This document shows positions 1,603 to 64,000 of a DNA stretch of 64,000 nucleotides, one piece after another. This stretch comes from Isurus oxyrinchus (taxonomy: Eukaryota), in assembly GCA_026770705.1 (NCBI GenBank), contig JANJGN010000010.1, positions 91,822,001 through 91,886,000 of the forward strand, given 5' to 3'. The position numbers and the translations under genes were made by a program. Below the pieces are notes generated by a model. It was given only the letters and a program-made list of their open reading frames with translations, had not been told where the DNA came from and searched no databases. Numbering within the stretch: position 1 is the stretch's first letter; every line of letters begins with the position of its first letter.

Positions 1603-1629
1603 AGATGCCAACAGACTACTCTCCACCAG
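1603..1629 (+). CDS. micro-exon A1 EMPTDYSPP
   Basis: ttcttttccag|AGATGCCAACAGACTACTCTCCACCAG|gtaaaa. Confidence 0.72.
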
Positions 1630-4600
1630 GTAAAAAAATACATGCTAGTCAGTGACTATCTTTGATCTCCTGATATTTGGACTCCAGGACAAATAAGTCA
1701 AATAAGTAAAAATATCTGGACTGGTCATCTGGTATTGAGCTCAGCCATGGAGTCAACAAAGGCGCACCCAGCCCAGGGGACGCTGTAAAGTTCATCTCAC
1801 TACCATCTGGCGACTTGTGCCAAAATTGAGGGAGCTGCCCCACAGATTAGTCACACAACAGGTTGAGTCATAGTCATACTCACAGAATGCTAGATTTCAG
1901 CCAACATCCCAGACTCCTCCATCACCATTCCTGAGTATATCCTGTCAACAGGCAGGTAGACTCACCAGCCCTGTGGTGCCAAGTCACTCGAGCCTTTTCT
2001 GCAAACTTCAATTTCTGTTGCTGGAATGTTCGGCCATTCTGACAAGCGGGCATCAGCTGTCATTCTGTGAATGTAACTATGTCTGACTATGTGTGACAAA
2101 TCTGTGGGTCAGCGCTCTCAATTTTTGTATCAAATTGTTTTTTTTTTGTTAACGTACTGTTCGTCAAACAAACTCCAGTCAGTATAGATTAAAGTTTTGA
2201 TTCTTCTTTTTCTGATGAACCTAACGGCTACTACCAACCAGGCATGAATACACCTGCTAGTGAGAGACTATCTTTGATTTCCTGCTATTTTGCTGCTGGC
2301 CCCGTTTTTAATGCATTGAAATTTGAGTGTCAGCTGTGGCCTAGTTGGCAGAAAAACTGCCACTGGGTCAAAGTTTATAATTTTAAATTTCATTCCAGGA
2401 TTTGAGCACAGGGATCTGTGTGACACTCCAGTGCTGTACTGAGGGAGGGTTGCACTGTGGAGGTGATGCCTTTTGAATGAATAGTGGAAGCGAGGCCCTG
2501 TCTACGCCCTCAGGATGACATAACAAGGCATTATTTTGGGATAGAACTGATTGGCTACTTGCAAGACCTGGCGTATTTTTGCCTCAATAAACATGACAAA
2601 AACAGATTATCTTTTCATGATCACATTGCTATTCATGCAAGTTTCCGTGCTGTGTTCCTCACCGCAGGTCGACATCTATAACCCCCAGCACTATTTCAGA
2701 AAAGAGTAGAGCCGTTATTCTCCATATCTCGGTTAATATTTATCCCTCAATTAACGTCACAAAAACAGATTACCTGGTAATCGTTACTTGGCTGTTTGTG
2801 GGAATTTCCTGTGTGCTAATTGGCTGTTGTTTTTCCTAAATTAAAAAGTGCTGTCATTTGAAACGCACTTCATTGGCTTTAAAGTACTGTGTGACTACAT
2901 TGGCCAAGGAAGGTGAAATATAAATTTATACTTTTCTTTTTCATTGATGTTATTCCTGAACATTTGGAGTGCTGCATAATCCCTCGGTCTCGGACGATCA
3001 TTACACTTCCTCTACCTGGTCCGATGTGCATTGGTGTTTACACAATTATTGACATGAGCTGACTTCCTGACAACATACAGGTCAGCTGGACAGTGTAAAT
3101 AGACAGTGTTTGTATTCTGAGATCTGGCATTATACTACCACTGGATGATGGACCATCTTCTGACACTTGGAAGACAATGACACGATTTGTTTTCTCACAA
3201 TTGTATAGTGAATTACATTCACACTCATTTGAGAACCAAATGACAGTTTAAGCTGCTTTTCTGGGAGCTCCGTTTTTGCCAAAACTGTGGCGAGTGATCA
3301 GTGCGGCCCAGTGGACATTCATGGGCAATAACATTGACCAATGCTTATTATGTTAATTAGAAACTCTCACTGATTCAATTCTGGGATCGCTATTTTCTCT
3401 CAAACTGAGGTGAGGGATTACTGGTGGCACAGTGGAATTTCGCACTCAATGACATTGACCAGGGCTCCAGAATTAAATCAGTGAGAGATTCTAATAAATG
3501 TGTGATTTGAACCATTTATTTTGCAATTTTGATCAGAATCAATCTTGGGTCAGTTTGGCATCCATTTGGCATCAACATAGCAGCCAGTGTGCTCCACAAA
3601 TCTACAGGATTAGTGCATTAAGATACTTGAGCCTATTCCTCAACCTCCACATGCTCAAATGTTCGACCATTCTGCTAAGGGGTCATCAGATTTTTGCAGT
3701 TTTGTGTCATAAATTATCTTACATTCTCCCTTCTGGTTATTTAAACAAAGATATGTCAAACAATCTTCATTCTGCTTTAAATTCATTATAGTTTACATTC
3801 TTCTTTTCCAGAGAAACCTACTGACTACTCTCCACCAGGTAAAAAGTACATGCTAGTCAGTAACTATCTTTGATCTCCTGACATTTGGATTCCTGTCCAG
3901 GCTTCCAGTGTATCCAACTTTAAAATGCCAGCAATGGGCAGGATATGAGAAATCCGGCCCCTGAGGCTATATAAGTTCAAATCCCACTCCAGAACAAACA
4001 GGTCCAATAAGTGAAAATAAACGGACAGGTCATCTGGTATTGAGCTCGCCCATGGAGTCAACAAAGATGCACCCAGCCCAGGGGATGTTGTAAAGTTCAT
4101 CTCACTACCATCTGGCGACTTGTGCCAAAATTGAGAGAACTGCCGCACAGATTAGTCACACAACAGGTTGAGACATAGTCACACTCACAGAATCCTAGAT
4201 TTCAGCCAACATCCCAGACTCTTCCATCACCATTCCTGAGTATGTCCCATCAACAAGCAGGTAGACCCACCAGCCCAGTGGTATCAAGTCACTCGAGCCT
4301 GTTCCGCAAACTTCAGTTTCTTTTACTGGCATGTTCGGCCATTCTGACAAGCGGGCATCAGCTGTCATTCTGTGAATGTAACCATGTGTCAACCTTTGGT
4401 GTGACTAATCTGTGGGTCAGCTCTCTCAATTTTGGCATAAGTCACTAGTTTTGTATCAAATTGTTTCTTTTTTTTTGTTAACGTACAAACATCCTCCTGT
4501 CGGTATAGATTAAAGTTTTAATTCTTCTTCTTTAGATGAACCTACCGTCCACAATCCACCAGGCAAGTATACACCTGCTAGTGAGTGACTATCTTTGATT

Positions 4601-7600
4601 TCCTGCTATTTTGACCCAGGCCCCGTTTTCAATGCATCGAAATTTGAGTGTCAGCTGTGGCCGAGTTGGCAGAAAAGCTGCCACTGGGGCAAAGTTTATC
4701 ATTTTAAATTTCACTCCATCATTTGAGCACAGCGATCTGGGTGACACTCCAGTGCAGTACTGAGGGAGGGTTGCACTGTGGAGGTGATGTCTTTTGCATG
4801 AATACTGGAAGAGCGGGCCTGTCTACGCCCTCAGTATGACAGAACAAGGCATTATTTTGGGAGAGAACTGATGGGCTATTTGCAGAGTCTTGCTGTATTT
4901 ATGCCTCAATACACATGACAAAAACGGATTATCCTTTCATGATCACATTGCTATTCATGCAAGGTGCAGGGCTGTATTTCTCATCGCAGGTCGACATCTA
5001 TAACCCCCAGCACTATTTCAGAAAAGAGTAGAGCTGTTATTCTCCATATCTCGGTTAATATTTATCCCTTAATCAACGTCACAAAAACAGATTACCTGGT
5101 AATCATTACTTGTCTGTTTGTGGGAATTTCCTGTGTGCTAATTGGCTGTTGTTTTTCCTAAATTCCAAAAGTGCTGTCATTTGAAACGCACTTCATTGGC
5201 TTTAAAGTACTGTGTGACTACATTGGCCAAGTAAGGTCAAATATAAATTTATACCTTTCTTTTTCATTGATGTTATTCCTGAACATTTGGAGTGCTGCAT
5301 AATCCCTCGCTCTCGGACGATCATTACACTTCCTCTACCTGGTCCAATGAGCATTGGTGTTTACACAATTATTGACAAGAGCTGACCTCCTGACAACACA
5401 CAGTTCAGCTGGACTGTGTAAATGGACAGTGTTTGTTTTCTGAGATCTGGCGTTATACGGCCACTGGATGATGGACCATCTTCTGACACTTGGAAGGCAA
5501 TGACACGATTTGTTTTTTTACAATTGTATAGTGAATTAAATTCACACTCGTATGAGAACCAAATGACGGTTTACGCAGCTTCTCTGGGAGCTCTGTTTCT
5601 GCCAAAACTATGGCGAGTGATCAGTGCGGCCCAGTGGACATTCATGGGCAATAACATTGACCAATGCTTATTATGTTTATTAGAAGCTCTCACTGATTCA
5701 ATGCTGGGATCTCTATTTTCTCTCAAATTGAGGTGAGGGATTACTGGTGGCACAGTGGAATTTTGCAGTCAATGACATTGACCAGTGCTCCAGAATTAAA
5801 TCAGTGAGAGATTCTAATAAATGTGTGATTTGAACCATTTATTTTGCAATTTTGATCAGAATCACTCTAGGGTCAGTTTGGCATCCATTTGGCATCAACA
5901 TAGCAGCCAGTGTGCTCCACAGATCTACAGGAATGGTGCATTAAGACACTTGAGCCTATTCCTCAACCTCAACATGCTCAAATGTTCGACCATTCTGCTA
6001 AGGGGTCATCAGATTTTTGTAGTTTTGTGTCATAAATTATCTTACGTTCTTCTTTCCGGTTACTTAAACAAAGATGTGTCAAACAATCTTCATTCTGCTT
6101 TAAATTCATTATAGTTTTCATTCTTCTTTTCCAGAGAAACCTACCGACTACACTCCACCAGGTAAAAAATACATGCTAGTCAGTGACTATCTTTGATCTC
6201 CTGTCCAGGCTTCCAGTGTATCCAACTTTAAAATGCTGGCAATGGGGAGGTTATGAGAAATCTGAACCCCTGAGGCAAAGTAAGTTCAAATCCCACTCCA
6301 GGACAAAGAAGTCAAATAAATAAAAACATATGGACTGGTCATCTAGTATTGAGTTCGTCCATGGAGTCAACAAAGACGCACCCAGCCCAGTGGACGCTGT
6401 AAATTTCATCTCACTACCATCTGGCGACTTGTGCCAAAATTGAGAGAGATGCCCCACAGATTAATCACACAACAGGTTGAGTCATAGTCACACTCACAGA
6501 ATGCTAGATTTCAGCCAACATCCCAGACTCCTCCATCACCATTCCTGAGTATATCCTGTCAACAGGCAAGTAGACTCACCAGCCCTGTGGTGTCAAGTCA
6601 CTCGAGCCTTTTCTGCAAACTTCAATTTCTGTTGCTGGAATGTTCGGCCATTCTGACAAGCGGGCATCAGCTGTCATTCTGTGGATGTAACTATGTCTGA
6701 CTATGTGTGACAAATCTGTGGGTCAGCGCTCTCAATTTTTGTAACAAATTGTTTTTTTTTGTTAACGTACTGTTCGTCAAACAAACTCCAGTCAGTATAG
6801 ATTAAAGTTTTGATTCTTCTTTTTCTGATGAACCTAACGGCTACTACCAACCAGGCATGAATACACCTGCTAGTGAGAGACTATCTTTGATTTCCTGCTA
6901 TTTTGACCCAGGCCCCGTTTTCAATGCATTGAAATTTGAGTGTCAGCTGTGGCCTAGTTGGCAGAAAAACTGCCACTGGGTCAAAGTTTATAATTTTAAA
7001 TTTCATTCCAGGATTTGAGCACAGGGATCTGTGTGACACTCCAGTGCAGTACTGAGGGAGGGTTGCACTGTGGAGGTGATGCCTTTTGAATGAATAGTGG
7101 AAGCGAGGCCCTGTCTACGCCCTCAGGATGACATAACAAGGCATTATTTTGGGATAGAACTGATTGGCTACTTGCAAGACCTGGCGTATTTTTGCCTCAA
7201 TAAACATGACAAAAACAGATTATCTTTTCATGATCACATTGCTATTCATGCAAGTTTCCGTGCTGTGTTCCTCACCGCAGGTCGACATCTATAACCCCCA
7301 GCACTATTTCAGAAAAGAGTAGAGCCGTTATTCTCCATATCTCGGTTAATATTTATCCCTCAATTAACGTCACAAAAACAGATTACCTGGTAATCGTTAC
7401 TTGGCTGTTTGTGGGAATTTCCTGTGTGCTAATTGGCTGTTGTTTTTCCTAAATTAAAAAGTGCTGTCATTTGAAACGCACTTCATTGGCTTTAAAGTAC
7501 TGTGTGACTACATTGGCCAAGGAAGGTGAAATATAAATTTATACTTTTCTTTTTCATTGATGTTATTCCTGAACATTTGGAGTGCTGCATAATCCCTCGG

Positions 7601-10600
7601 TCTCGGACGATCATTACACTTCCTCTACCTGGTCCGATGTGCATTGGTGTTTACACAATTATTGACATGAGCTGACTTCCTGACAACATACAGGTCAGCT
7701 GGACAGTGTAAATAGACAGTGTTTGTATTCTGAGATCTGGCATTATACTACCACTGGATGATGGACCATCTTCTGACACTTGGAAGACAATGACACGATT
7801 TGTTTTCTCACAATTGTATAGTGAATTACATTCACACTCATTTGAGAACCAAATGACAGTTTAAGCTGCTTTTCTGGGAGCTCCGTTTTTGCCAAAACTG
7901 TGGCGAGTGATCAGTGCGGCCCAGTGGACATTCATGGGCAATAACATTGACCAATGCTTATTATGTTAATTAGAAACTCTCACTGATTCAATTCTGGGAT
8001 CGCTATTTTCTCTCAAACTGAGGTGAGGGATTACTGGTGGCACAGTGGAATTTCGCACTCAATGACATTGACCAGGGCTCCAGAATTAAATCAGTGAGAG
8101 ATTCTAATAAATGTGTGATTTGAACCATTTATTTTGCAATTTTGATCAGAATCAATCTTGGGTCAGTTTGGCATCCATTTGGCATCAACATAGCAGCCAG
8201 TGTGCTCCACAAATCTACAGGATTAGTGCATTAAGATACTTGAGCCTATTCCTCAACCTCCACATGCTCAAATGTTCGACCATTCTGCTAAGGGGTCATC
8301 AGATTTTTGCAGTTTTGTGTCATAAATTATCTTACATTCTCCCTTCTGGTTATTTAAACAAAGATATGTCAAACAATCTTCATTCTGCTTTAAATTCATT
8401 ATAGTTTACATTCTTCTTTTCCAGAGAAACCTACTGACTACTCTCCACCAGGTAAAAAGTACATTCTAGTCAGTAACTATCTTTGATCTCCTGACATTTG
8501 GATTCCTGTCCAGGCTTCCAGTGTATCCAACTTTAAAATGCCAGCAATGGGCAGGATATGAGAAATCCGGCCCCTGAGGCTATATAAGTTCAAATCCCAC
8601 TCCAGAACAAACAGGTCCAATAAGTGAAAATAAACGGACAGGTCATCTGGTATTGAGCTCGCCCATGGAGTCAACAAAGATGCACCCAGCCCAGGGGATG
8701 TTGTAAAGTTCATCTCACTACCATCTGGCGACTTGTGCCAAAATTGAGAGAACTGCCGCACAGATTAGTCACACAACAGGTTGAGACATAGTCACACTCA
8801 CAGAATCCTAGATTTCAGCCAACATCCCAGACTCTTCCATCACCATTCCTGAGTATGTCCCATCAACAAGCAGGTAGACCCACCAGCCCAGTGGTATCAA
8901 GTCACTCGAGCCTGTTCCGCAAACTTCAGTTTCTTTTACTGGCATGTTCGGCCATTCTGACAAGCGGGCATCAGCTGTCATTCTGTGAATGTAACCATGT
9001 GTCAACCTTTGGTGTGACTAATCTGTGGGTCAGCTCTCTCAATTTTGGCATAAGTCACTAGTTTTGTATCAAATTGTTTCTTTTTTTTTGTTAACGTACA
9101 AACATCCTCCTGTCGGTATAGATTAAAGTTTTAATTCTTCTTCTTTAGATGAACCTACCGTCCACAATCCACCAGGCAAGTATACACCTGCTAGTGAGTG
9201 ACTATCTTTGATTTCCTGCTATTTTGACCCAGGCCCCGTTTTCAATGCATCGAAATTTGAGTGTCAGCTGTGGCCGAGTTGGCAGAAAAGCTGCCACTGG
9301 GGCAAAGTTTATCATTTTAAATTTCACTCCATCATTTGAGCACAGCGATCTGGGTGACACTCCAGTGCAGTACTGAGGGAGGGTTGCACTGTGGAGGTGA
9401 TGTCTTTTGCATGAATACTGGAAGAGCGGGCCTGTCTACGCCCTCAGTATGACAGAACAAGGCATTATTTTGGGAGAGAACTGATGGGCTATTTGCAGAG
9501 TCTTGCTGTATTTATGCCTCAATACACATGACAAAAACGGATTATCCTTTCATGATCACATTGCTATTCATGCAAGGTGCAGGGCTGTATTTCTCATCGC
9601 AGGTCGACATCTATAACCCCCAGCACTATTTCAGAAAAGAGTAGAGCTGTTATTCTCCATATCTCGGTTAATATTTATCCCTTAATCAACGTCACAAAAA
9701 CAGATTACCTGGTAATCATTACTTGTCTGTTTGTGGGAATTTCCTGTGTGCTAATTGGCTGTTGTTTTTCCTAAATTCCAAAAGTGCTGTCATTTGAAAC
9801 GCACTTCATTGGCTTTAAAGTACTGTGTGACTACATTGGCCAAGTAAGGTCAAATATAAATTTATACCTTTCTTTTTCATTGATGTTATTCCTGAACATT
9901 TGGAGTGCTGCATAATCCCTCGCTCTCGGACGATCATTACACTTCCTCTACCTGGTCCAATGAGCATTGGTGTTTACACAATTATTGACAAGAGCTGACC
10001 TCCTGACAACACACAGTTCAGCTGGACTGTGTAAATGGACAGTGTTTGTTTTCTGAGATCTGGCGTTATACGGCCACTGGATGATGGACCATCTTCTGAC
10101 ACTTGGAAGGCAATGACACGATTTGTTTTTTTACAATTGTATAGTGAATTAAATTCACACTCGTATGAGAACCAAATGACGGTTTACGCAGCTTCTCTGG
10201 GAGCTCTGTTTCTGCCAAAACTATGGCGAGTGATCAGTGCGGCCCAGTGGACATTCATGGGCAATAACATTGACCAATGCTTATTATGTTTATTAGAAGC
10301 TCTCACTGATTCAATGCTGGGATCTCTATTTTCTCTCAAATTGAGGTGAGGGATTACTGGTGGCACAGTGGAATTTTGCAGTCAATGACATTGACCAGTG
10401 CTCCAGAATTAAATCAGTGAGAGATTCTAATAAATGTGTGATTTGAACCATTTATTTTGCAATTTTGATCAGAATCACTCTAGGGTCAGTTTGGCATCCA
10501 TTTGGCATCAACATAGCAGCCAGTGTGCTCCACAGATCTACAGGAATGGTGCATTAAGACACTTGAGCCTATTCCTCAACCTCAACATGCTCAAATGTTC

Positions 10601-13600
10601 GACCATTCTGCTAAGGGGTCATCAGATTTTTGTAGTTTTGTGTCATAAATTATCTTACGTTCTTCTTTCCGGTTACTTAAACAAAGATGTGTCAAACAAT
10701 CTTCATTCTGCTTTAAATTCATTATAGTTTTCATTCTTCTTTTCCAGAGAAACCTACCGACTACACTCCACCAGGTAAAAAATACATGCTAGTCAGTGAC
10801 TATCTTTGATCTCCTGTCCAGGCTTCCAGTGTATCCAACTTTAAAATGCTGGCAATGGGGAGGTTATGAGAAATCTGAACCCCTGAGGCAAAGTAAGTTC
10901 AAATCCCACTCCAGGACAAAGAAGTCAAATAAATAAAAACATATGGACTGGTCATCTAGTATTGAGTTCGTCCATGGAGTCAACAAAGACGCACCCAGCC
11001 CAGTGGACGCTGTAAATTTCATCTCACTACCATCTGGCGACTTGTGCCAAAATTGAGAGAGATGCCCCACAGATTAATCACACAACAGGTTGAGTCATAG
11101 TCACACTCACAGAATGCTAGATTTCAGCCAACATCCCAGACTCCTCCATCACCATTCCTGAGTATATCCTGTCAACAGGCAAGTAGACTCACCAGCCCTG
11201 TGGTGTCAAGTCACTCGAGCCTTTTCTGCAAACTTCAATTTCTGTTGCTGGAATGTTCGGCCATTCTGACAAGCGGGCATCAGCTGTCATTCTGTGGATG
11301 TAACTATGTCTGACTATGTGTGACAAATCTGTGGGTCAGCGCTCTCAATTTTTGTAACAAATTGTTTTTTTTTGTTAACGTACTGTTCGTCAAACAAACT
11401 CCAGTCAGTATAGATTAAAGTTTTGATTCTTCTTTTTCTGATGAACCTAACGGCTACTACCAACCAGGCATGAATACACCTGCTAGTGAGAGACTATCTT
11501 TGATTTCCTGCTATTTTGACCCAGGCCCCGTTTTCAATGCATTGAAATTTGAGTGTCAGCTGTGGCCTAGTTGGCAGAAAAACTGCCACTGGGTCAAAGT
11601 TTATAATTTTAAATTTCATTCCAGGATTTGAGCACAGGGATCTGTGTGACACTCCAGTGCAGTACTGAGGGAGGGTTGCACTGTGGAGGTGATGCCTTTT
11701 GAATGAATAGTGGAAGCGAGGCCCTGTCTACGCCCTCAGGATGACATAACAAGGCATTATTTTGGGATAGAACTGATTGGCTACTTGCAAGACCTGGCGT
11801 ATTTTTGCCTCAATAAACATGACAAAAACAGATTATCTTTTCATGATCACATTGCTATTCATGCAAGTTTCCGTGCTGTGTTCCTCACCGCAGGTCGACA
11901 TCTATAACCCCCAGCACTATTTCAGAAAAGAGTAGAGCCGTTATTCTCCATATCTCGGTTAATATTTATCCCTCAATTAACGTCACAAAAACAGATTACC
12001 TGGTAATCGTTACTTGGCTGTTTGTGGGAATTTCCTGTGTGCTAATTGGCTGTTGTTTTTCCTAAATTAAAAAGTGCTGTCATTTGAAACGCACTTCATT
12101 GGCTTTAAAGTACTGTGTGACTACATTGGCCAAGGAAGGTGAAATATAAATTTATACTTTTCTTTTTCATTGATGTTATTCCTGAACATTTGGAGTGCTG
12201 CATAATCCCTCGGTCTCAGACGATCATTACACTTCCTCTACCTGGTCCGATGTGCATTGGTGTTTACACAATTATTGACATGAGCTGACTTCCTGACAAC
12301 ATACAGGTCAGCTGGACAGTGTAAATAGACAGTGTTTGTATTCTGAGATCTGGCATTATACTACCACTGGATGATGGACCATCTTCTGACACTTGGAAGA
12401 CAATGACACGATTTGTTTTCTCACAATTGTATAGTGAATTACATTCACACTCATTTGAGAACCAAATGACAGTTTAAGCTGCTTTTCTGGGAGCTCCGTT
12501 TTTGCCAAAACTGTGGCGAGTGATCAGTGCGGCCCAGTGGACATTCATGGGCAATAACATTGACCAATGCTTATTATGTTAATTAGAAACTCTCACTGAT
12601 TCAATTCTGGGATCGCTATTTTCTCTCAAACTGAGGTGAGGGATTACTGGTGGCACAGTGGAATTTCGCACTCAATGACATTGACCAGTGCTCCAGAATT
12701 AAATCAGTGAGAGATTCTAATAAATGTGTGATTTGAACCATTTATTTTGCAATTTTGATCAGAATCAATCTTGGGTCAGTTTGGCATCCATTTGGCATCA
12801 ACATAGCAGCCAGTGTGCTCCACAAATCTACAGGATTAGTGCATTAAGATACTTGAGCCTATTCCTCAACCTCCACATGCTCAAATGTTCGACCATTCTG
12901 CTAAGGGGTCATCAGATTTTTGCAGTTTTGTGTCATAAATTATCTTACATTCTCCCTTCTGGTTATTTAAACAAAGATATGTCAAACAATCTTCATTCTG
13001 CTTTAAATTCATTATAGTTTACATTCTTCTTTTCCAGAGAAACCTACTGACTACTCTCCACCAGGTAAAAAGTACATTCTAGTCAGTAACTATCTTTGAT
13101 CTCCTGACATTTGGATTCCTGTCCAGGCTTCCAGTGTATCCAACTTTAAAATGCCAGCAATGGGCAGGATATGAGAAATCCGGCCCCTGAGGCTATATAA
13201 GTTCAAATCCCACTCCAGAACAAACAGGTCCAATAAGTGAAAATAAACGGACAGGTCATCTGGTATTGAGCTCGCCCATGGAGTCAACAAAGATGCACCC
13301 AGCCCAGGGGATGTTGTAAAGTTCATCTCACTACCATCTGGCGACTTGTGCCAAAATTGAGAGAACTGCCGCACAGATTAGTCACACAACAGGTTGAGAC
13401 ATAGTCACACTCACAGAATCCTAGATTTCAGCCAACATCCCAGACTCTTCCATCACCATTCCTGAGTATGTCCCATCAACAAGCAGGTAGACCCACCAGC
13501 CCAGTGGTATCAAGTCACTCGAGCCTGTTCCGCAAACTTCAGTTTCTTTTACTGGCATGTTCGGCCATTCTGACAAGCGGGCATCAGCTGTCATTCTGTG

Positions 13601-49600: not shown

Positions 49601-52600
49601 AATTACCTTCACACTCGTATGAGAACCAAATGATGGTTTACGCAGCTTCTCTGGGAGCTCTGTTTCTGCCAAAACTATGGCGAGTGATCAGTGCGGCCCA
49701 GTGGACATTCATTGGCAATAACATTGACCAATGCATATTATGTTTATTAGAAGCTCTCACTGATTCAATTCTGGGATCTCTATTTTCTCTCAAATTGAGG
49801 TGAGGGATTACTGGTGGCACAGTGGAATTTCGCAGTCAATGACGTTGACCAGTGCCCCAGAATATAATCAGTGAGAGATTCTAATAAATGTGTAATTTGA
49901 ACCATTTATTTTGCAATTTTGATCAGAATCAATCTTGGGTCAGATTGGCATCCATTTGGCATCAACATAGCAGTCTGTGCACCACAAATCTATAAGATTA
50001 GTGAATTAAGACACTTGAGCCTGTTCCTCAACCTCCAGTTGCTCCAATGTTCGACCATTCTGCTAAGTGGTCATCCGATTTTTGCAATTTTGTGTCATAA
50101 ATTATCTTACGTTCTTCCTTCCGGTTATTTAAACAAAGATATGTCAAACAATCTTCATTCTGCTTTAAATTCATTATAGTTTTCATTCTTCTTTTCCAGA
50201 GAAACCTACCGACTACTCTCCACCAGGTAAAAAGTACATGCTAGTCAGTGACTATCTTTGATCCCCTGACATTTGGACTCCTGTCCAGGCTTCCAGTGTA
50301 TCCAACTTTAAAATGCCAGCAATGGGCAGGATATGAGAAATCTGGCCCCTAAGGCTATATAAGTTCAAATCCCACTCCAGGACAAACAAGTCAAATAAGT
50401 GAAAATAAACGGACAGGTCATCTGGTATTGAGCTCGCCCATGGAGTCAACAAAGACGCACCCAGCCCAGGGGATGTTGTAAAGTTCATCTCACTACCATC
50501 TGGCGACTTGTGCCAAAATTGAGAGAACTGCCACACAGATTAGTCACACAACAGGTTGAGACGTAGTCACACTCACAGAATCCTAGATTTCAGCCAACAT
50601 CCCAGACTCCTCCATCACCATTCCTGAGTATGTCCCATCAACAAGCAGGTAGACCCACCAGCCCAGTGGTATCAAGTCACTCGGGCCTATTCCACAAACT
50701 TCAGTTTCTGTTGCTGGAATGTTCGGCCATTCTGACAAGCGGGCATCAGCTGTCATTCTGTGAATGTAACCATGTGTCAACCTTTGGTGTGACTAATCTG
50801 TGGGTCAGCTCTCTCAATTTTGGCACAAGTCACCAGTTTTTTATCAAATTGTTTCTTTTTTTTTGTTAACGTACACACAACCTCCTGTCGGTATAGATTA
50901 AAGTTTTAATTCTTCTTCTTCAGATGAACCTACCGTCTACTATCCACCAGGCAAGTATACACCTGCTAGTGGGTGACTATCTTTGATTTCCTGCTATTTT
51001 GACCCAGGCCCCGTTTTCAATGCATCAAAATTTGAGTGTCAGCCTTGGCCTAGTTGGCAGAAAAGCTGCCACTGGGGCAAAGTTTATCATTTTAAATTTC
51101 ACTCCAGCATTTGAGCACAATTATCTGGGTGACACTCCAGTGCAGTACTGAGGGAGGGGTGCACTGTGGAGGTGATGTCTTTTGCATGAATACTGGAAGT
51201 GCGGGCCTGTCTACACCCTCAGGATGACATAACAAGGCATTATTTTGGGATAGAACTGATGGGCTATTTGCAGAGTCTTGCTGTATTTATGCCTCAATAC
51301 ACATGACAAAAACGGATTATCTTTTCATGATCACATTGCTATTCATGCAAGGTGCAGTTCTGTATTCCTGATCGCAGGTCGACATCTATAACCCCCAGCA
51401 CTATTTCAGAAAAGAGTAGAGCTGTTATTCTCCATATCTCAGTTAATATTTATCCCTTAATCAATGTCACAAAAACAGATTGCCTAGTAATCATTACTTG
51501 TCTGTTTGTGGGAATTTCCTGTGTGCTAATTGGCTGTTGTTTTTCCTAAATTACAAAAGTGCTGTCATTTGAAACGCACTTCATTGGCTTTAAAGTACTG
51601 TGTGACTACATTGTCCAAGTAAGGTGAAATATAAATTTATACCTTTCTTTTTCATTGATGTTATTCCTGAACATTTGGAGTGCTGCATAATCCCTCGCAC
51701 TCAGACGATCATTACACTTCCTCTACCTGGTCCAATGTGCATTGGTGTTTACACAATTATTGATATGAGCTGACCTCCTGAAAACATACAGGTCAGCTGG
51801 ACAATGTAAATGGACAGTGTTTGTATTCTGAGATCTGGCGTTATACTGCCACTGGATGATCGACCATCTTCTGACATTTGGAAGGCAATGACACGATTTG
51901 TTTTTTTTCAAATGTTTGGTGAATTACATTCACACTCGTATGAGAACCAAATGACGGTTTACGCAGCTTCTCTGGGAGCTCTGTTTCTGCCAAAACTATG
52001 GCGAGTGATCAGTGCGGCCCAGTGGACATTCATTGGCAATAACATCGACCAATAAATTATGTTTATTAGAAACTCTCACTGATTCAATGCTGGGATCTCC
52101 ATTTTCTGTCAAATTGAGGTGAGGGATTACTGGTGGCACAGTGGAATTTTGCAGTCAATGACATTGCCCAGTGCTCCAGAATTAAATCAGTGAGAGATTC
52201 TAATAAATGTGTGATTTGAACCATTTATTTTGCAATTTTGATCAGAATCAATCTTGGGTCAGTTTGGCATCCATTTGTCATCAACATAGCAGCCAGTGTG
52301 CTCCACGAATCTACAAGATTAGTGCATTAAGATACTTGAGCCTCTTCCTCAGCCTCCAGTTGCTCAAATGTTCGACCATTCTTCTAAGGGGTCATCAGAT
52401 TTTTGCAGTTTTGTGTCATAAATTATATTATGTTCTTCTTTCCGGTTATTTAAACAAAGATATGTCAAACAATCTTCATTCTGCTTTAATTTCATTATAG
52501 TTTTCATTCTTCTTTTCCAGAGAAACCTACCAACTACTCTCCACCAGGTAAAAAAATACATGCTAGTCAGTGACTATCTTTGATCTCCTGACATTTGGAC

Positions 52601-55600
52601 TCCTGTCCAGGCTTCCAGTGTATCCAACTTTAAAATGCTGGCAATGGGGAGGTTATGAGAAATCTGAACCCCTGAGGCAAAGTAAGTTCAAATCCCACTC
52701 CAGGACAAAGAAATCAAATAAGTAAAAATATATGGACTGGTCATCTAGTATTGAGCTTGTCCATGGAGTCAACACAGACGCACCCAGCCCAGTGGACGCT
52801 GTGAAGTTCATCTCACTACCATCTGCAACTTGTGCCACTATTGAGAGAGATGCCTCACAGATTAGTCACACCACAGGTTGAGTCATAGTCACACTCACAG
52901 AATGCTAGTCAGCCAACATCCCAGACTCCTCCAGCACCATTCCTGAGTATATCCTGTCAACAAGCAGGTAGACCCACCAGCCCAGTGGTGTCAAGTCAGT
53001 CGAGCCTTTTCTGCAAACTTCAATTTCTGTTGCTGGAATGTTTGGCCATTCTGACAAGCGGGCATCAGCTGTCATTCTGTGAATGTAACTATGTCTCAAG
53101 GTTTTGTGTGACTAATCTGTGGGTCAGCTCTCCCAATTTTGGCACAAGTCACCAGTTTTGTAAAAATTGTTTTTGTTTTTCGTTAGCGTACTGTTCGTCA
53201 AACAACCTTCAGTCAGTATAGATTAAAGTTTTAATTCTTCTTTTTCGGATGAACCTACTGTTCACTATCCACCAGGCAAGAATACACCTGCTAGTGAGTG
53301 ACTTTCCTAAATTACAAAAGTGCTATTATTTGAAACGCACTTCATTGGCTTTATAGTACTGTGTGACTACATTGGTCAAGTAAAGTGAAATATAAGTTTA
53401 TACCTTTCTTTTTCATTGATGTTATTCCTGAATATTTGGCGGGCTGCATAACCGCTCGCTCTCGGATGATCATTACATTTCCTCTACCTGGTCCAATGTG
53501 CATTGGTGCTTACACAATTATTGACATGAGCTGACCTGACAACACACAGGTCAGCTGGATTGTGTAAAGGAACAGTGTTTGTATTCTGAAATCTGGTGTT
53601 ATACTGCCACTGGATGATCGACCATCTTCTGACATTTGGAAGGCAATGACAGGATTTGTTTTTTTACAATTGTATTGTGATTTACATTCACGCTCGTATG
53701 AGAACCAAATGACGGTTTACGCAGCTTCTCTGGGAGCTCTGTTTCTGCCAAAACTATGGCGAGTGATCAGTGCCGCCCAGTGGACATTCATTGGCAATAA
53801 CATTGACCAATGCTTATTATGTTTTTTAGAAGCTCTCACTGATTCAAAGCTGGGATCGCTATTTTCTCTCAAATTGAGTTGAGGCATTACTGGTGGCACA
53901 GTGGAATTTCGCAGACAATGACGTTGACCAGTGCCCCAGAATTAAATCAGTAAGAGATTCTAATAAATGTGTAATTTGAACCATTTATTTTGCAATTTTG
54001 ATCAGAATCAATCTTGGGTCAGTTTGGCATCCATTTGGCATCAACATAGCAGCCAGTGTGCTCCACAAATCTACAAGATTAGTGCATTAAGACATTTGAG
54101 CCTCTTCCTCAGCCTCCAGTTGCTCAAATGTTCGACCATTCTGCTAAGGGGTCATCAGATTTTTGCAGTTTTGTGTCATAAATTATCTTACGTTCTTCTT
54201 TCCGGTTATTTAAACAAAGATATGTCAAACAATCTTCATTCTGCTTTAAATTCATTATAGTTTACATTCTTCTTTTCCAGAGATACCAACTGACTACTCT
54301 CCACCAGGTAAAAAAATACATGCTAGTCAGTGACTATCTTTGATCTCCTGATATTTGGACTCCAGGACAAACAAGTCAAATAAGTAAAAATATATGGACT
54401 GGTCATCTGGTATTGAGCTCAGCCATGGAGTCAACAAAGGTGCACTCAGCCTAGGGGCGCTGTAAAGTTCATCTCACTACCATCTGGCGACTTGTGCCAA
54501 AATTGAGAGAACTGCCCCACAGATTAGTCACACAAAAGGTTGAGTCATAGTCACACTCACATAATCCTAGATTTTAGCCAACATCCCAGACTCCTCCATC
54601 ACCATTCCTGTCAACAAGCAGGTAGACCCACCAGCCCTATGGTGTCAAGTCAGTCGAGCCTTTTCTGCAAACTTCAATTTCTGTTGCTGGAATGTTCGGC
54701 CATTATGACAAGCGGGCATCAGCTGTCATTCTGTGATTGTAACTATATCTCAAGCTTTTGTGTGACAAATCTGTGGGTCAGTGCTCTCAATTTTTGTATC
54801 AAATTGTTTCTTTTTTTTTGTTAACGTACTGTTCGTCAAACAAACTCCAGTCAGTATAGATTAAAGTTTTGATTCTTCTTTTTCTGATGAACCTAATGTC
54901 TACTATCCACCAGGCATGGATCCACCTGCTAGTGAGTGACTATCTTTGATTTCCTGCTATTTTGCTGCTGGCTCCGTTTTCATTGCTTTGAAATTTGAGT
55001 ATCAGCTGTGGCCTAGTTGGCAGAAAAGCTGCCACTGGGGCAAAGTTTATAATTTTAAATTTCACTCCAGCATTTGAGCACAGCGATCTGGGTGACACTC
55101 CAGTGCAGTACTGAGGGAGGGTTGCACTGTGGAGGTGATGTCTTTTGCATGAATACTGGAAGCGAGGCCCTGTCTACACCCTCAGGATGGCATAACAAGG
55201 CATTATTTTGGGATAGAACTGATTGGCTATTTGCAGAGTCTTGCTGTATTATGCCTCAATACACATGACAAAAACAGTTTATCTTTTCATGATCACATTG
55301 CTATTCATGCAAGGTGCAGTGCTGTATTCCTCATCGCAGGTTGATATCTATAACCCCCAGCACTATTTGAGAAAAGAGTAGAGCCGTTATTCTCCATATC
55401 TCGGTTAATATTTATCCCTCAATTAACGTCACAAAAACAAATTAGCTGGTAATCGTTACTTGGCTGTTTGTGGGAATTTCCTGTGTGTTAATTGGCTGTT
55501 GTTTTTCCTAAATTACAAAAGTGCTGTCATTTGAAACGCACTTCATTTGCTTTAAAGTACTGTGTGACTACATTGTCCAAGTAAGGTGAAATATAAATTT

Positions 55601-58600
55601 ATACCTTTCTTTTTCATTGATGTTATTCCTGAACATTTGGAGTGCTGCATAATCCCTCGCTCTCGGACGATCATTACACTTTCTCTACCTGGTCCAATGT
55701 GCATTGGTGTTTACACAATTATTGAAAAGCGCTGACCTCCTGACAACATACAGGTCAGCTGGACTGTGTAAATGGACAGTGTTTGTATTCTGAGATCTGG
55801 CATTATGCTGCCACTGGATGATCGGCCATCTTCTGACACTTGGATTTGTTTTTTTACACTTGTATAGTGAATTACATTCACACTTGTATGAGAACCAAAT
55901 GATGGTTTACGCAGCTTCTCTGGGAGCTCTGTTTCTGCCAAAACTATGGCGAGTGATCAGTGCGGCCCAGTGGACATTCATTGGCAATGACATTGACCAA
56001 TGCTTATTATGTTTATTAGAAACTCTCATTGATTCAATTCTGGGATCTCTATTTTCTCTCAAATTGAGTTGAGGGATTACTGGTGGCACAGTGGAATTTC
56101 GCAGTCAATGACGTTGACCAATGCCCCAGAATTAAATCAGTGAGAGATTCTAATAAATGTGTATTTTGAACCATTTATTTTGCAATTTTGATCAGAATCA
56201 ATCTTGGGTCAGTTTGGCATCCATTTGTCATCAACATAGCAGCCAGTGTGCTCCACAAATCTACAAGATTAGTGCATTAAGACACTTGAGCCTCTTCCTC
56301 AGCCTCCAGTTGCTCAAATGTTCGAGCATTCTATTAAGAGGTCATCAGATTTTTGCAGTTTTGTGTCATAAATTATCTTACGTTTTTCTTTCCGGTTATT
56401 TAAACAAAGATGTGTCAATCAATCCTCATTCTGCTTTAAATTCATTATAGTTTTCATTCTTCTTTTCCTGAGATACCAACTGATTACTCTTCACCAGGTA
56501 AAAAAATACATGCTAGCCAGTGACTATCTTTGATCTCCTGATATTTGGACTCCAGGACAAACAAGTCATATAAGTATAAATACATGAACTGGTCATCTGG
56601 TATTGAGCTCAGCCATGGAGTCAACAAAGGCGCACCCAGCCCAGTGGACGCTGTAAAGTTCATCTCACTACCATCTGGCGCACTTGTGCCAAAATTGAGA
56701 GAGCTGCCCCACAAAAGCTTGAGACATAGTCACACTCACAGAATCCTAGATTTCAGCCAACATCCCAGACTCCTCCATCTGCATTCCTGAGTATATCCTG
56801 TCAACAAGTCACCAGTTTTGTATCAAATTGTTTGTGTTTTTGTTAGCGTACTGTTCGTCAAACAACCTCCAGTCAGTATAGATCAAAGTTTTAATTCTTC
56901 TTTTTCGGATGAACCTACCATCCACTATCCACCAGGCAAGAATACTTCTGCTAGTGAGTGACTTTCTTTCATTTCCTTCTTTTTTGGCGCATGCCCCGTT
57001 TTCAATGCATTGAAATTTGAGTGTCAGCTGTGGCCTAGTTGACAGAAAAGCTGCCACTGAGACAATGATTATATTTTTAAATTTCACTCCAGCATTTGAG
57101 CACAGCGATCTGGGTGACACTCCAGTGCAGTACTGAGGGAGGGCTGCACTTTGGAGATGTTGTCTTTTGCATGAATACTGGAAGCGCGGCCCTGTTTACA
57201 CCCTCAGGATGACATAACAAGGCATTATTTTGGGATAGAACTGATGGGTTATTTGCTGAGTCTTGCTGTATTTATGCTTGAATACACATGACAAAAACAG
57301 ATTATCTTTTCCTGATCACGTTGCTTATCATATAAGGTGCAGTGGTGTATTCCTCATCGCTGGTTGATATCAATAACCCCCAGCACTATTTGAGAAAAGA
57401 ATAGAGCTGTCATTCTCCATATCTCGGTTAATATTGATCCTTTAATCAACCTCACAAAAACACATCACCTGATAATCATTACTTGGCTGTTTGTGGCAAT
57501 TTCCTGTGTGCTAACTGGCTGTTGTTTTTCCTAAATTACAAAAGTGCTATCATTTGAAATGCACTTCATTGGCTTTATAGTACAGTGTCACAACATTGGT
57601 CAAGTAAAGTGAAATATAAATTTATACCTTTCTTTTTCATTGATGTTATTCCTGAACATTTGGAGTGCTGCATAATCCCTTGCTCTCAGATGATCATTAC
57701 ATTTCCTCTACCTGGTCCAATGTTCATAGCTGTTTACACAATTATTGAAAAGAGCTGACCTCCGGACAACACACAGGTCAGCTGGACTGTGTATATGGAC
57801 AGTGTTTGTATTCAGAGATCTGGCGTTATACTGTCACTGGATGATCGACCATCTTCTGACACTTGGAAGGCAATGATACGATTTGTTTTTTCACAATTGT
57901 ATAGTGAATTACATTCACACTCGTATGAGAACCAAATGACGGTTTACGGCGCTTCTCTGGGAGCCGTGTTTCTGCCAAAACTATGGCGTGTGTGCAGTGC
58001 GGCTCAGTGGACATTCATGGGCAATAACATTGACCAATGCTTATTATGTTTATTAGAATCCCTCACAGATACAATGCTGGGATCTCTATCTTCTCTCAAA
58101 ATGAGGTGAGGGATTACTATTGGCACAATGGAATTTCGCAGTCAATGACGTTGACCAGTGCCCCGGAATTAAGTCAGTGAGAGATTCTAATAAATGTGTA
58201 ATTTGAACCATTTATTTTGCTATTTTGATCAGAATCAATCTTGGGTCAGTTTGGCATCCATTTGGCATCAACATAGCAGCCAGTGTGCTCCACAAATCTA
58301 CAGGATTAGTGCATTAAGATACTTGAGCCTGTTCCTCAACCTCCAGTTGCTCAAATGTTCGATCATTCTGCAAAAGGGTCATCAGATTTTTGCAGTTTTG
58401 TGTCATAAATTATTTTGCGTTCTTCCTTCCTGTTATTTAAACACAGATATGTGAGCAATCTTCATTTTGCTTTAAATTCATTTTAGTTTTCATTCTTCTT
58501 TTCCAGAGAAACCTACCGACTACTTTCCACCAGGTAAAAAATACATGCTAGTCAGTAACTATCTTTGATCTCCTGACATTTGGACTCCTGACCAGGCTTC

Positions 58601-61600
58601 CAGACTTTTAAATACCGGCAATGGGCAGGTTATGAGAAATCTGGCCCCTGAGGCAAAGTAAGTTCAAATCCCACTCCAGGACAAACAAGTCAAAAAAGTA
58701 AAAATATACAGACAGGTCATCTGGTATTGAGCTCGGCCATGGAGTCAATAAAGACGCACCCACCCCAGGGTTCGCTGTAAAGTTCATCTAACTACCATCT
58801 GGCAACTTGTGCCAAAATTGAGAGAGCTGCCCTACAGATTAGTCACACAACAGGTTGAGACATAGTCATACTCACAGAATCCTAGATTTCAGCCAACATC
58901 CCAGACTCCTCCATCACCATTCCTGAGTATGTCCCATCAACAAGCAGGTAGACCCACCAGCCCAGTGGTATCAAGGCACTCGAGCCTTTTCTGCACGCTT
59001 CAGTTTCTGTTGCTGGAATGTTCGGCCATTCTGACAAGCGGGCATCAGCTGTCATTCTGTGCATGTAACTATGTCTCGACCTTTTGTGTGACTAATCTGT
59101 GGGTCAGCTCTCTCAATTTTGGCACAAGTCACCAGTTTTGTATCAAATTGTTTCTTTTTTTTTGTTAACATGCTGTTCATCAAACAACCGCCAGTCGGTA
59201 TAGATTAAAGTTTTAATTCTTCTTTTTCAGATGAACCTACCGTCTACTATCCACCAGGCAAGAATATACCTGCTAGTGAGTGATTATCTTTGATTTCCTG
59301 CTATCTTGACCCAGGCCCCGTTTTCAATGCATCGAAATTTGAGTGTCAGCCTTGGCCTAGTTGGCAGAAAAGCTGCCTCTGTGGCAAAGTTTATAATTTT
59401 AAATTTCACTCCAGGATTTTAGCACAGCAATCTGGGTGATACTCTTGTACAGTACTGAGGGAGGGCTGCACTGTGGAGGTATTGTCTTTTGCATCAATAC
59501 TGGAAGTGCGGCCCTGTGTACACCGTCAGGATGACATAACCAGGCATTATTTTGCGATAGAACTGATGGGTTATTTGCAGAGTCTTGGCGTGTTTATGCT
59601 TGAATACACATGACAAAAACAGATTATCTTTTCATGATCACATTGCTATTCATGTAAGGTGCAGTGTTGTATTCCTCATCTCAGGTCGACATCAACAACC
59701 CTCAGCACTATTTCAGAAAAGAGTAGAGCTGTTATTATCCGTATCTCGGTTAATATTTACCCCTCAAACAACGTCACAAAAACACATTATCTGGTAATCA
59801 TTATGTGGCTGTTTGTGGGAATTTCCTGTATGATAATTGGCTGTTGTTTTTCCTAAATTACAAAAGTGCTGCCATTTCAAGTGTCTTTAAAGTAATGTGT
59901 GACTACATTGGTCAAGAAAGGTGAAATATAAATTTATACCTTTCTTTTTCACTGATGTTATTCCTGAACACTTGGCATGCTGCATAATCCCTCGCTCTCA
60001 GATGTTCATTGCATTTCCTGTACCTGGTCCAATGTTCATAGCTGTTTACACAATTATTGAAAAGCGCTGACCTCCGGACAACACACAGGTCAGCTGGATT
60101 GTGTATATGGATAGTGTTTGTATTCTGAGATCTGGCGTTATACGGCCACTGGATGATCGACCATCTTCTGACACTTGGAAGGCAATGACACGATTTGTTT
60201 TTTTACAATTGTACAGTGAATTACATTCACTCTCGTATGAGAACCAAATGACGGTTTAAGCCGCTTTTCATGGAGCTCTGTTTTTGCCAAAACTATGGCG
60301 AGTGATCAGTGCGGCCCAGTGGATATTCATTGGCAATAACATTGACCAATGCTTATTATGTTTATTAGGAACTCTCATTGATTCCATTCTGGGATCTCTA
60401 TTTTCTCTCAAATTGAGGTGAGTGATTACTGGTGGCACAGTGAATTTCCCGGTCAATGATATTGACCAGTGCCCCAGAATTAAATCAGTGAGAGATTCTA
60501 ATAAATGTGTGATTTGAACCATTTATTTTGCAATTTTGATCAGAATCAATCTTGGGTCAGTTTGGCATCCATTTGGCATCAACATAGCAGCCAGTGTGCT
60601 CCACAAATCTCCAAGATTAGTGCATTAAGACATTTGAGCCTCTTCCTCAGCCTCCAGCTGCTCAAATATTCGACCATTCTGCTAAGCGGTCATCAGATTT
60701 TTGCAGTTTTGTGTCATAAATTATCTTGCTTCTTCCTTCCGGTTATTTAAACAAAGATATGTCAAACAATCTTCATTCTGCTTTAAATTCAATATAGTTT
60801 TAATTCTTCTTTTCCAGAGAGACCTACTGACTACTCTCCACCAGGTAAAAAATACATGCTAGTCAGTGACTATCTTTGATCTCCTGACATTTGGGCTGCT
60901 GTCCACGCTTCCACTGTATCCAACTTTTAAAGTGCTGGCAATGGCCAAGTTTTCAGAAATCCCTGAGGCAAAATAAGTTCAAATCCCACTCAATGACAAA
61001 CAAGTCAAATAAGTAAAAATATATGGAGAGGTCATCTGGTATTGAGCTCGGCCACGGAGTCAACAAAGGCGCACCCAGCCCAGGGGACACTGTAAAGTTC
61101 ATCTCACTACTATCTGACAACTTGTGCCAAAATTGAGAGAGCTGCCCCACAGATTAATCACACAACAGGTGGGGACCTAGTCACTCTCACAGAATCCTAG
61201 ATTTCAGCCAATATCCCAGACTTCTCCATCACCATTCCTGAGTATGTCGTACCCACAGGCAGGAAGACCCACCAAAGGAGGCAGCACAGAGATATCAAGT
61301 CCCTTGAGCCCGATCCGCAAACTTCAGTTTCTGTTGCTAGAATATTTAGCCATTCTGACAAGCGGAAATCACCATTTTCTGTGACACAGTTTTGTATCAA
61401 AAATTATTTATTGTTTGTCCATTTTTTTTGTTGATAGTGTCCAGTGTCAGGCAAACAATCTTCATTCTGTTTACTATTGATTAAAGTTTTAATTCTTCTT
61501 TTTCAGAAGAACCTACCGTATACTATCCACCAGGCAAGAATACACCTGCTAGTAAGTGACAATCTTTGATTTCCTGCTATTTTGACCTAGGCCTCATTTT

Positions 61601-63803: not shown

Positions 63804-64000
63804 GTATAAAATACATGCTAGTCAGTGACTATCTTTGATCTCCTGACATTTGGACTCCTGCCCAACTTTCCAGTACGTCCAAACTTTAAAGTGCCAGCAA
63901 TGGCCAAGTTATCAGAAATCTGGTCCCTACGGTAAAGTAAGTTCAAATTCCACTCCAGGACAAACAAGTCAAATAAGCAAAAGAATAAGGACAGATCATC

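Follow-up and report, generated by a model that had tools for sequence, protein, structure and literature searches.

Gel-forming mucins are secreted proteins that dimerize via a cystine knot and polymerize via their D3 region. Several biologically distinct systems are relevant to the locus considered here. Human MUC19 has many exons, the FIM mucins have Thr-rich repeats, with cassette splicing in the case of FIM-B.1, and mussel foot protein 1 and the plant extensins are composed of short, basic Pro/Tyr/Lys repeats that are cross-linked via tyrosine. In vertebrate MUC6, to which two paralogues of Callorhinchus milii belong (accessible text of PMC4948705), three VWD-C8-TIL units and a C-terminal cystine knot bracket one large central exon. 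In the SmPoMuc genes of Schistosoma mansoni, a 27-bp exon lies in a tandem genomic repeat of ~1 kb, each exon encodes one repeat unit, the introns are homogenised, and assembly is troublesome (available part of PMC2576457). Chicken Muc13 is a vertebrate mucin with one repeat unit per exon, for which a splicing-based control of length was proposed; it is not a VWD gel-former but a SEA mucin of the transmembrane type, and its repeat is a genuine PTS sequence (PMC1552070, in the parts available). The Xenopus proteins FIM-B.1 and FIM-C.1 are secreted skin mucins, the former with vWD domains, and the latter with trefoil domains and polymorphic via alternative splicing; they are compared here without orthology being implied (PMC7177656, likewise in part).

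The window analysed here, a stretch of 64,000 nucleotides from contig JANJGN010000010.1 (C10) of Isurus oxyrinchus, contains an array that probably makes up the repetitive centre of a MUC6-family mucin, secreted and gel-forming, whose gene would be one of three chondrichthyan paralogues in tandem. As in SmPoMuc, there is one symmetric exon per repeat in tandem exon-intron cassettes, and schistosome micro-exon genes were among the analogues suggested in a first-pass annotation of the DNA; the gene, which that annotation did not recognise, is a MUC6-family gel-forming mucin and neither titin nor triadin. SmPoMuc nevertheless encodes an unrelated protein, has at most ~20 repeats per gene and shows demonstrated transcript variation (PMC2576457, in part), whereas in the present array, known from DNA, exons of two types alternate and repeats of a higher order occur. 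The host gene resembles vertebrate MUC6 in its three VWD-C8-TIL units, its cystine knot and its position opposite Muc2/Muc5-like genes. It differs in having a Pro/Tyr/acidic centre instead of a PTS domain, a repeat region spread over ~84 usable micro-exons where MUC6 has a single large exon, no equivalent of MUC2 Cys1130, a VWC-like module and a span of at least 638 kb. The likeness to mussel foot protein 1 and extensins is of composition only: the shark repeat is net acidic and homology is not expected. The one-exon-per-repeat architecture is already known from SmPoMuc and chicken Muc13; scale and repeat chemistry are unusual. In the literature searched by titles and abstract openings, with few subscription journals and exclusive of the supplements of PMC4948705, no description of this array was found, and five repeat motifs occurred in no paper.

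The micro-exon array

A mismatch scan of the window recovered 59 copies of a 27-nt unit at 1603..63803, the number given in the first-pass annotation, all on the + strand and in strict alternation of 30 type-A and 29 type-B copies; the - strand has no copy even with 9 mismatches allowed. That annotation had also counted 41 intact exons, and 41/59 copies indeed combine AG with a GT or GC donor. Its assertion that every copy is 27 nt long was borne out by an indel-tolerant nhmmer search (113 matches), in which no window copy changed length and the 4 matches beyond the ungapped set all lay outside the window. Every window copy ends in G and begins with AG, AT or AA, so that each junction encodes Glu or Asp in phase 1, again as proposed. 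The type-B acceptor, quoted as general, exists in 12 of the 29 copies, always with a GC donor, and is missing from the other 17, while AG and a GT donor are present in 29/30 type-A copies. Of the 18 broken acceptors, 16 have no usable AG nearby and two have a shifted one. Features of the window, in window coordinates, are:

1603..63803, + strand: array of alternating A and B copies, 438-728 bp from an A copy to the following B and 1020-1599 bp from B to the following A (2270 bp in the last case)
Starts 1603, 3812, 6135, 8425, 10748, 13038, 15351, 17669, 19335, 21536, 23838, 26139, 28441, 30755, 32419, 34085, 36298, 37964, 40177, 41843, 43497, 45699, 48016, 50200, 52521, 54281, 58507, 60818, 63777, + strand: 29 intact type-A exons (AG..GT), usual product EKPTDYSPP
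4536..61533, + strand: 12 intact type-B exons with GC donors, starts 4536, 9149, 13762, 16072, 22254, 24556, 26857, 29159, 46417, 50924, 59231, 61507, usual product DEPTVYYPP
2215, 6828, 11441, 18303, 19953, 31389, 33053, 34703, 36932, 38582, 40811, 42477, 44115, 48622, 53249, 54887, 56909, + strand: 17 type-B copies without acceptor AG, lying with the copy at 56471 within 2215..56935
19953, + strand: the type-B copy with an alternative, in-frame AG at +3
56471, + strand: type-A copy without acceptor AG; an AG at +2 would shift the frame
19413..30837, + strand: recent tandem block, period 2.3 kb, 97.5% identity across 9.1 kb
31443..42531, + strand: recent higher-order block, period 3.9 kb, 98.1% identity across 7.2 kb

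A profile search was extended to 664 kb, comprising the window plus flanking sequence, of the 4.98-Gb genome. The best - strand score over this region was -10.5 against a cut-off of 12, which rules out chance as a source of the array, and the micro-exon array of the window is confirmed as real. The profile detected 109 ungapped copies with starts from C10 91,789,694 to 92,111,812, a run of 322 kb, giving the full array about five times the length of the window:

C10:91789694-91821564, + strand: 6 copies upstream of the window, 3 of them intact
C10:91886774-92111838, + strand: 44 older copies downstream, of which 28 are canonical and 5 dead, while in 11 the acceptor stands at +3 (24 nt)

By splice class, 72 of the 109 copies are canonical and 12 have the +3 acceptor, which yields an in-frame exon of 24 nt, making 84 usable; the 25 unusable ones comprise 24 dead copies and a single out-of-frame copy. 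Of the nhmmer matches beyond the ungapped set, three are copies with a clear change of length and the fourth is partial; some length-changed copies retain AG and GT and would shift the frame if included.

Copies outside the window are spaced more widely and are older. The median identity to the nearest copy is 82.5% there (49/50 with a match), as opposed to 99.5% in the window, which is a recent expansion of the array; the earlier suggestion that the copy number of the DNA unit contributes to repeat length agrees with this expansion by unit duplication. Such near-identity of nearest copies is also what would be expected if the copy number in the window had been inflated through assembly error. 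The long blocks, however, differ by 2-3% with gaps, above what is usual for false duplication, and 96 of the 109 units are distinct when compared over ~280 bases; such an error is very unlikely. The final two micro-exons (C10:92110892 and 92111812) rank with the most divergent copies and possess strong GT donors, in keeping with the edge of an array that is turned over by unequal crossing-over.

A run of Tandem Repeats Finder did not detect the array because its period limit was 500. At window positions 61900-63070 an insertion of ~1.1 kb with inverted terminal copies, presumably a fragment of a Penelope-type element, breaks the last unit, and a similar end is seen at 1-45. The long B-to-A introns (e.g. 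200-480) contain a decayed interspersed repeat, which we take to be of the SINE-like kind known from shark genomes, that was multiplied along with the cassette.

The host gene and its relatives

A splice-site scan of the low-repeat flanks uncovered cysteine-rich phase-1 exons on either side of the array, and searches with shark models placed these in a gene of about 640 kb. The first-pass annotation had called for a flanking + strand gene with phase-1 exons upstream and downstream, and both are present, with VWD exons upstream and a cystine knot downstream:

C10:91508968-91751754, + strand: three VWD-C8-TIL assemblies, D1, D2 and D3 in order, from tblastn with shark models
C10:91778248, + strand: 141-nt exon, phase 1-1, with His where MUC2 has Cys1130
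C10:91782976, + strand: 63-nt cysteine exon
C10:91787920, + strand: divergent 27-nt exon
G000:C10:91822001-91886000, + strand: the window, wholly inside the host gene
C10:92127294-92128155, + strand: three VWC-like exons of 29, 138 and 52 nt, labelled from inspection and without a Pfam match
C10:92134624-92147222, + strand: two cystine-knot exons, including the stop

The layout is thus three VWDs, repeat array, VWC-like module and cystine knot on one strand and in one frame. Exon phases are continuous from D3 through the array, and those of the subsequent exons (29, 138, 52 and 103 nt, and the last exon) lead without a break to the stop at 92,147,220, with AATAAA 152 nt past the stop codon. 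The flanking exons are 63-100% identical to shark models named 'mucin-6-like' and 'integumentary mucin B.1-like'. All five candidate matches of the 141-nt exon are chondrichthyan proteins, four of them named 'mucin-6-like', and the last exon matches three shark C-terminal mucin models (3/4 candidates), the best being the basking shark model P0006 (98%). Pfam matched none of three single exons submitted to it; the orthologous shark models carry Pfam VWD, C8, TIL and Cys_knot domains, and P0006 passes the Cys_knot cut-off, this being the only domain called by Pfam in that C-terminal part. Four tblastn VWD alignments (and a few more in another run) contain stops, apparently where the alignment crosses an intron or repeat. 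No signal-peptide exon was matched within 17 kb upstream of the first VWD exon, and no fourth VWD was seen between the array and the knot among the matches listed (150 of 256 candidates scored).

Two minor features of these exons may be recorded. The 63-nt cysteine exon is present in the bamboo shark and one skate model and absent from the whale shark and catshark models, and, with its 1-1 phase, may be either an optional cassette or a fault of the gene predictions. In the sevengill shark model P0008, a block of one repeat and the VWC-like module stands six times in tandem before the knot, which would reflect either exon duplication at a second level or an artefact of assembly.

Public models of the orthologues are all fragments, in which the N- and C-terminal halves are separate and differently named:

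Orthologous RefSeq fragments, most with 2-13 joined repeats: XP_078405719.1, XP_078405718.1, XP_048463234.1, XP_038661963.1, XP_043562379.1, XP_072447852.1, XP_067850395.1

Taken at face value, these could mean that the VWD gene and the cystine-knot gene are separate, with the array part of one or neither: XP_078405719.1 and XP_078405718.1 are separate models in the basking shark, and no model among those found spans the whole. Yet strand and phases agree throughout, the matches listed include no further VWD in the interval from D3 at 91.71 Mb to the first VWD of the following gene at 92.305 Mb, the repeats are attached to either half depending on the species' model, and a neighbouring paralogue is laid out alike, so that two genes appear very unlikely. 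If the locus is read as one gene, two pieces to which public shark annotation gives different names belong together. The claim that annotation would miss such a gene was partly right: shark models exist, and they split the gene and catch only some of the repeats. The gene was missed because ~2.2 kb of repeat code is scattered across 322 kb of satellite-like DNA.

Best matches and gene order indicate that the host gene is a chondrichthyan MUC6 paralogue. With the D3 of a bamboo shark fragment (P0002) as query, tetrapod MUC6 scored 295-350 bits, as against 201-217 bits for the solved MUC2, MUC5AC and MUC5B. The D3 of the host gene is 47-56% identical to that of tetrapod and coelacanth MUC6. A D3 tree of 31 rows, consisting of the host gene and 30 proteins (20 chondrichthyan and 10 others, without MUC2, MUC5 or MUC19 rows) and rooted at its midpoint, placed the host gene beside the basking shark (98/97), a position indicative of a lamniform, in a 12-row clade including rays and a chimaera (99/98). 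The two further chondrichthyan clades make three, which match three tandem + strand Muc6-like genes on C10, the first VWD exon of each lying near 90.35, 91.51 or 92.31 Mb. Head-to-head with these, minus-strand VWD exons lie at C10:89.33-89.78 Mb; the two that were tested have MUC2/MUC5AC as best mucin match, with FCGBP higher by summed score. On the other side, an alpha-adaptin match is found on the minus strand at 93.14 Mb; in the human genome, AP2A2 adjoins MUC6. As far as the accessible text of Lang et al. 2016 (PMC4948705) goes, Muc6 of cartilaginous fishes lies head-to-head with Muc2, and Callorhinchus milii has two Muc6 paralogues.

That the host gene might instead be an orthologue of MUC19, FIM-B.1 or spiggin is suggested by its C-terminal models, named 'integumentary mucin B.1-like' or 'intestinal mucin-like', and by the VWC-like module preceding the knot; the comparison also has no direct MUC19 score and no MUC19 row in the tree. 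Against this, mucin-2, -5 and -19 are absent from the names of the best 120 of 217 D3 matches, and the gene has on one side opposite-strand VWD genes whose exons are MUC2/MUC5-like and on the other an alpha-adaptin gene, a Muc6-opposite-Muc2 order that matches the published one and counts against MUC19. We regard this identity as highly improbable, and retain that of a MUC6 paralogue. MUC19/FIM-B.1 had been the first label, dropped after the D3 match names and gene-order evidence; titin, triadin, LCP2-type adaptors and zonadhesin were dropped as host genes once the VWD and cystine-knot exons were found.

Are the micro-exons used?

In automatic models of six shark species, repeats of this 9-residue kind are joined at the position of the array; these are predictions, several of which seem to read through into introns. 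Repeats are joined directly after D3 in the models of the whale shark (5 units), the basking shark (4) and the catshark, the last having an initial unit that matches the exon at 91,787,920, three more and then four, including an 8-residue unit such as the +3 acceptor predicts. In two bamboo sharks the joined units precede the VWC-like exon (XP_043562379.1 has 13 consecutive ones), as they do, in more divergent form, in the sevengill shark. The models of batoid orthologues have no repeats and end before the array, and the C-terminal model of Callorhinchus shows a Pro-rich lead-in without a clear repeat; among the models compared, the repeat thus appears evident in sharks only. A search of representative proteins with the model P0007 (32 matches) yielded no further protein with the repeat motif. 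The predicted non-PTS mucin would be common to galeomorph sharks at least, and probably to squalomorph sharks.

In-frame stops occur in none of the 109 copies; an alternative frame has them in 72. Using a spanning tree on intron-flank distances, the edges of which are not fully independent, 11.1 stops were expected and 0 observed over 70 usable pairs (P 1.6e-5), as against 0.7 expected and 0 observed over 12 dead pairs; within the window alone the expectation is 0.9 and the test has no power. The absence of stops where about 11 were expected makes the frame look translated, and with the flanking phase-1 exons it upholds the idea, already in the first-pass annotation, of phase-1 symmetric micro-exons of a vertebrate gene.

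The same annotation had argued from synonymous and conservative differences. Over 92 of the 95 tree edges (three with a flank distance >0.35 were left out), divergence per site is 0.098 in the flanks, 0.100 for pS and 0.101 for pN, giving a pN/pS of 1.02, or 1.23 with correction for the mutation spectrum. Intact pairs of the window (n=29) show 9 synonymous and 24 non-synonymous changes, with a pN/pS of 0.88. With pN/pS near 1 and exon divergence equal to intron divergence, the argument fails; moreover, indistinguishable divergence of exons and introns, which is what we find (0.10 versus 0.098 per site), had been set beforehand as one of three refuting results; a second, absence of a gene in the flanks, does not apply. 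The only unit position that is conserved is the last Pro (7 changes versus 17.2 expected, P 0.005 before correcting for 8 positions), which adjoins the donor, and position 5 has an excess of changes (30 versus 17.3 expected). Indels are fewer in exons than in flanks, a deficit of little weight because the set was chosen for being ungapped.

These values would sit comfortably with a host gene that uses only part of the exons, the expansion in the window being mostly a neutral, satellite-like amplification of intronic cassettes of which most are skipped. The 17 type-B copies that lost their AG and were then copied on in that state, and the want of power of the stop test in the window, are in line with this. 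It does not readily explain why AG and GT were kept in nearly all type-A copies, why stops are avoided over the whole array, or why a window-type unit occurs twice in the basking shark model, and we consider it rather unlikely. Our reading is that the array is translated, with selection appearing to act on the frame and perhaps on bulk composition. Each exon of 27 (or 24) nt would add one Pro/Tyr/acidic unit of 9 (or 8) residues, and the exon-plus-intron cassettes would multiply through unequal crossing-over, most recently in the window, with changes in copy number. With all exons in phase 1-1, the loss of an acceptor would remove that copy from the product without harm; hence dead copies could be amplified along with live ones, and the targets of selection would be the frame and the bulk composition, not the exact residues. 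The weak GC donors of type-B exons would favour skipping, and variation in length through exon skipping is plausible, with chances that we put at about even.

A search of sequencing runs with window positions 58400-63900 returned 24 runs, none with half of the query words; the RNA-type runs had shares of 0.03-0.12, which probably derive from the mobile element in this segment. Four RNA-type runs of the 24, from unspecified tissues, were mapped to 10 kb holding the VWC-like and first knot exons. Depth was 0 in bins 1-1336 in all four, leaving the first two VWC-like exons uncovered, which, given the unspecified tissues, speaks neither for nor against use; bins touching two other exons, beside repeats, had depths of 0.2-1.1. 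No GT..AG joint occurred among the 15 joints listed (468 more).

Composition of the repeat and the D3 cysteine

The 84 usable exons encode 744 residues, of which 29% are P, 20% D+E, 16% Y, 14% S+T and 7% K+R. In the 80 residues after D3, S+T amounts to 39-65% in three models of sister paralogues and rat Muc6. The repeat of the bamboo shark model has 11% S+T and the window exons 18.5%. With 14% against 39-65%, the host protein is set apart from typical PTS mucins; strictly, it would be a member of the MUC6 family that lacks a PTS domain of the typical kind. Of the 116 tyrosines, 109 have at least two acidic residues within 5 positions.

As regards polymerization, the MUC2 heads are joined through Cys1088 and Cys1130, and a Cys1130Ala head is a mixture of monomer and dimer (available part of PMC7599080). 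Alignment of the host gene to MUC2 locates an equivalent of Cys1088 in a GDCEC motif, whereas that of Cys1130 is absent, judging from the gene's own exons and the orthologue P0002 against the solved MUC2 chain. It is absent from 8/8 proteins of the host gene's clade (A) and kept in 5/5 of clade B, 1/4 of clade C and 100/100 other MUC6 matches listed; in the clade of the upstream paralogue, 3/4 proteins are without it.

From family knowledge, the host protein would dimerize by its cystine knot and polymerize by D3. We suggest that its repeat may form an extended, anionic and sparsely glycosylated spacer whose tyrosines could be sulfated or oxidatively cross-linked, offsetting the missing D3 disulfide, a suggestion to which we give somewhat less than even chances. 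That modified tyrosines take the place of glycans and of the missing disulfide is the step of which we are least sure, and its main rival is ordinary O-glycosylation: one or two Thr/Ser per unit could carry a conventional brush, leaving the tyrosines without special chemistry. Pro near Thr favours GalNAc transfer, position 4 of the unit is Thr, beside Pro, in 64 of the 96 distinct copies, and S+T is higher in the window exons than in the array as a whole. On the other hand, S+T is far below the comparison stretches both in the array and in the bamboo shark model, and Lys or Asn replaces the Thr of position 4 in 21/96 distinct copies. The conventional brush is a substantial possibility, if a lesser one than the tyrosine-rich spacer. 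In its fullest form, our proposal is that a glycan brush and one of two N-terminal disulfides were traded for a sulfated or cross-linked Tyr-rich spacer, the length of which, set by copy number and by skipping among ~84 micro-exons, would tune the mesh size or stiffness of a structural gel; this combination, as a whole, is doubtful. If it were true, egg jelly or capsule, gut and electrosensory canal would be candidate sites for such a gel. The protein would be a vertebrate gel-forming mucin with a non-PTS centre and a matched loss of a polymer-forming cysteine, allowing direct tests of mucin gels without dense glycans and of the ordered splicing of dozens of near-identical 27-nt exons.

Lys-Pro bonds resist trypsin, so the repeat would be largely missed by standard proteomics. 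Shark skin mucus contains mucin-5B-like, mucin-2-like and unnamed vWFD proteins, the term Muc6 being absent from the accessible part of the report (PMC10707392), and the oviducal gland contains neutral and sulfated mucins, given without gene names in the available text of PMC8471067.

The neighbouring paralogues also offer some observations. In the upstream Muc6-like gene (C10:90.35-91.21 Mb), the first and third VWD exons are ~860 kb apart, if this is one gene, and the five stretches sampled between its D3 and the host gene have no micro-exon candidates. The next Muc6-like paralogue extends ~830 kb from a first VWD at 92.305 Mb to a knot at 93.128 Mb; at C10:92.90-93.09 Mb, 5/9 sampled 10-kb stretches contain 6 candidate micro-exons, with 0 on the reverse strands. 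These are Thr/Ser-rich, of 30 and 24 nt and in phase 1, and three of them are identical and spaced ~51-53 kb apart.
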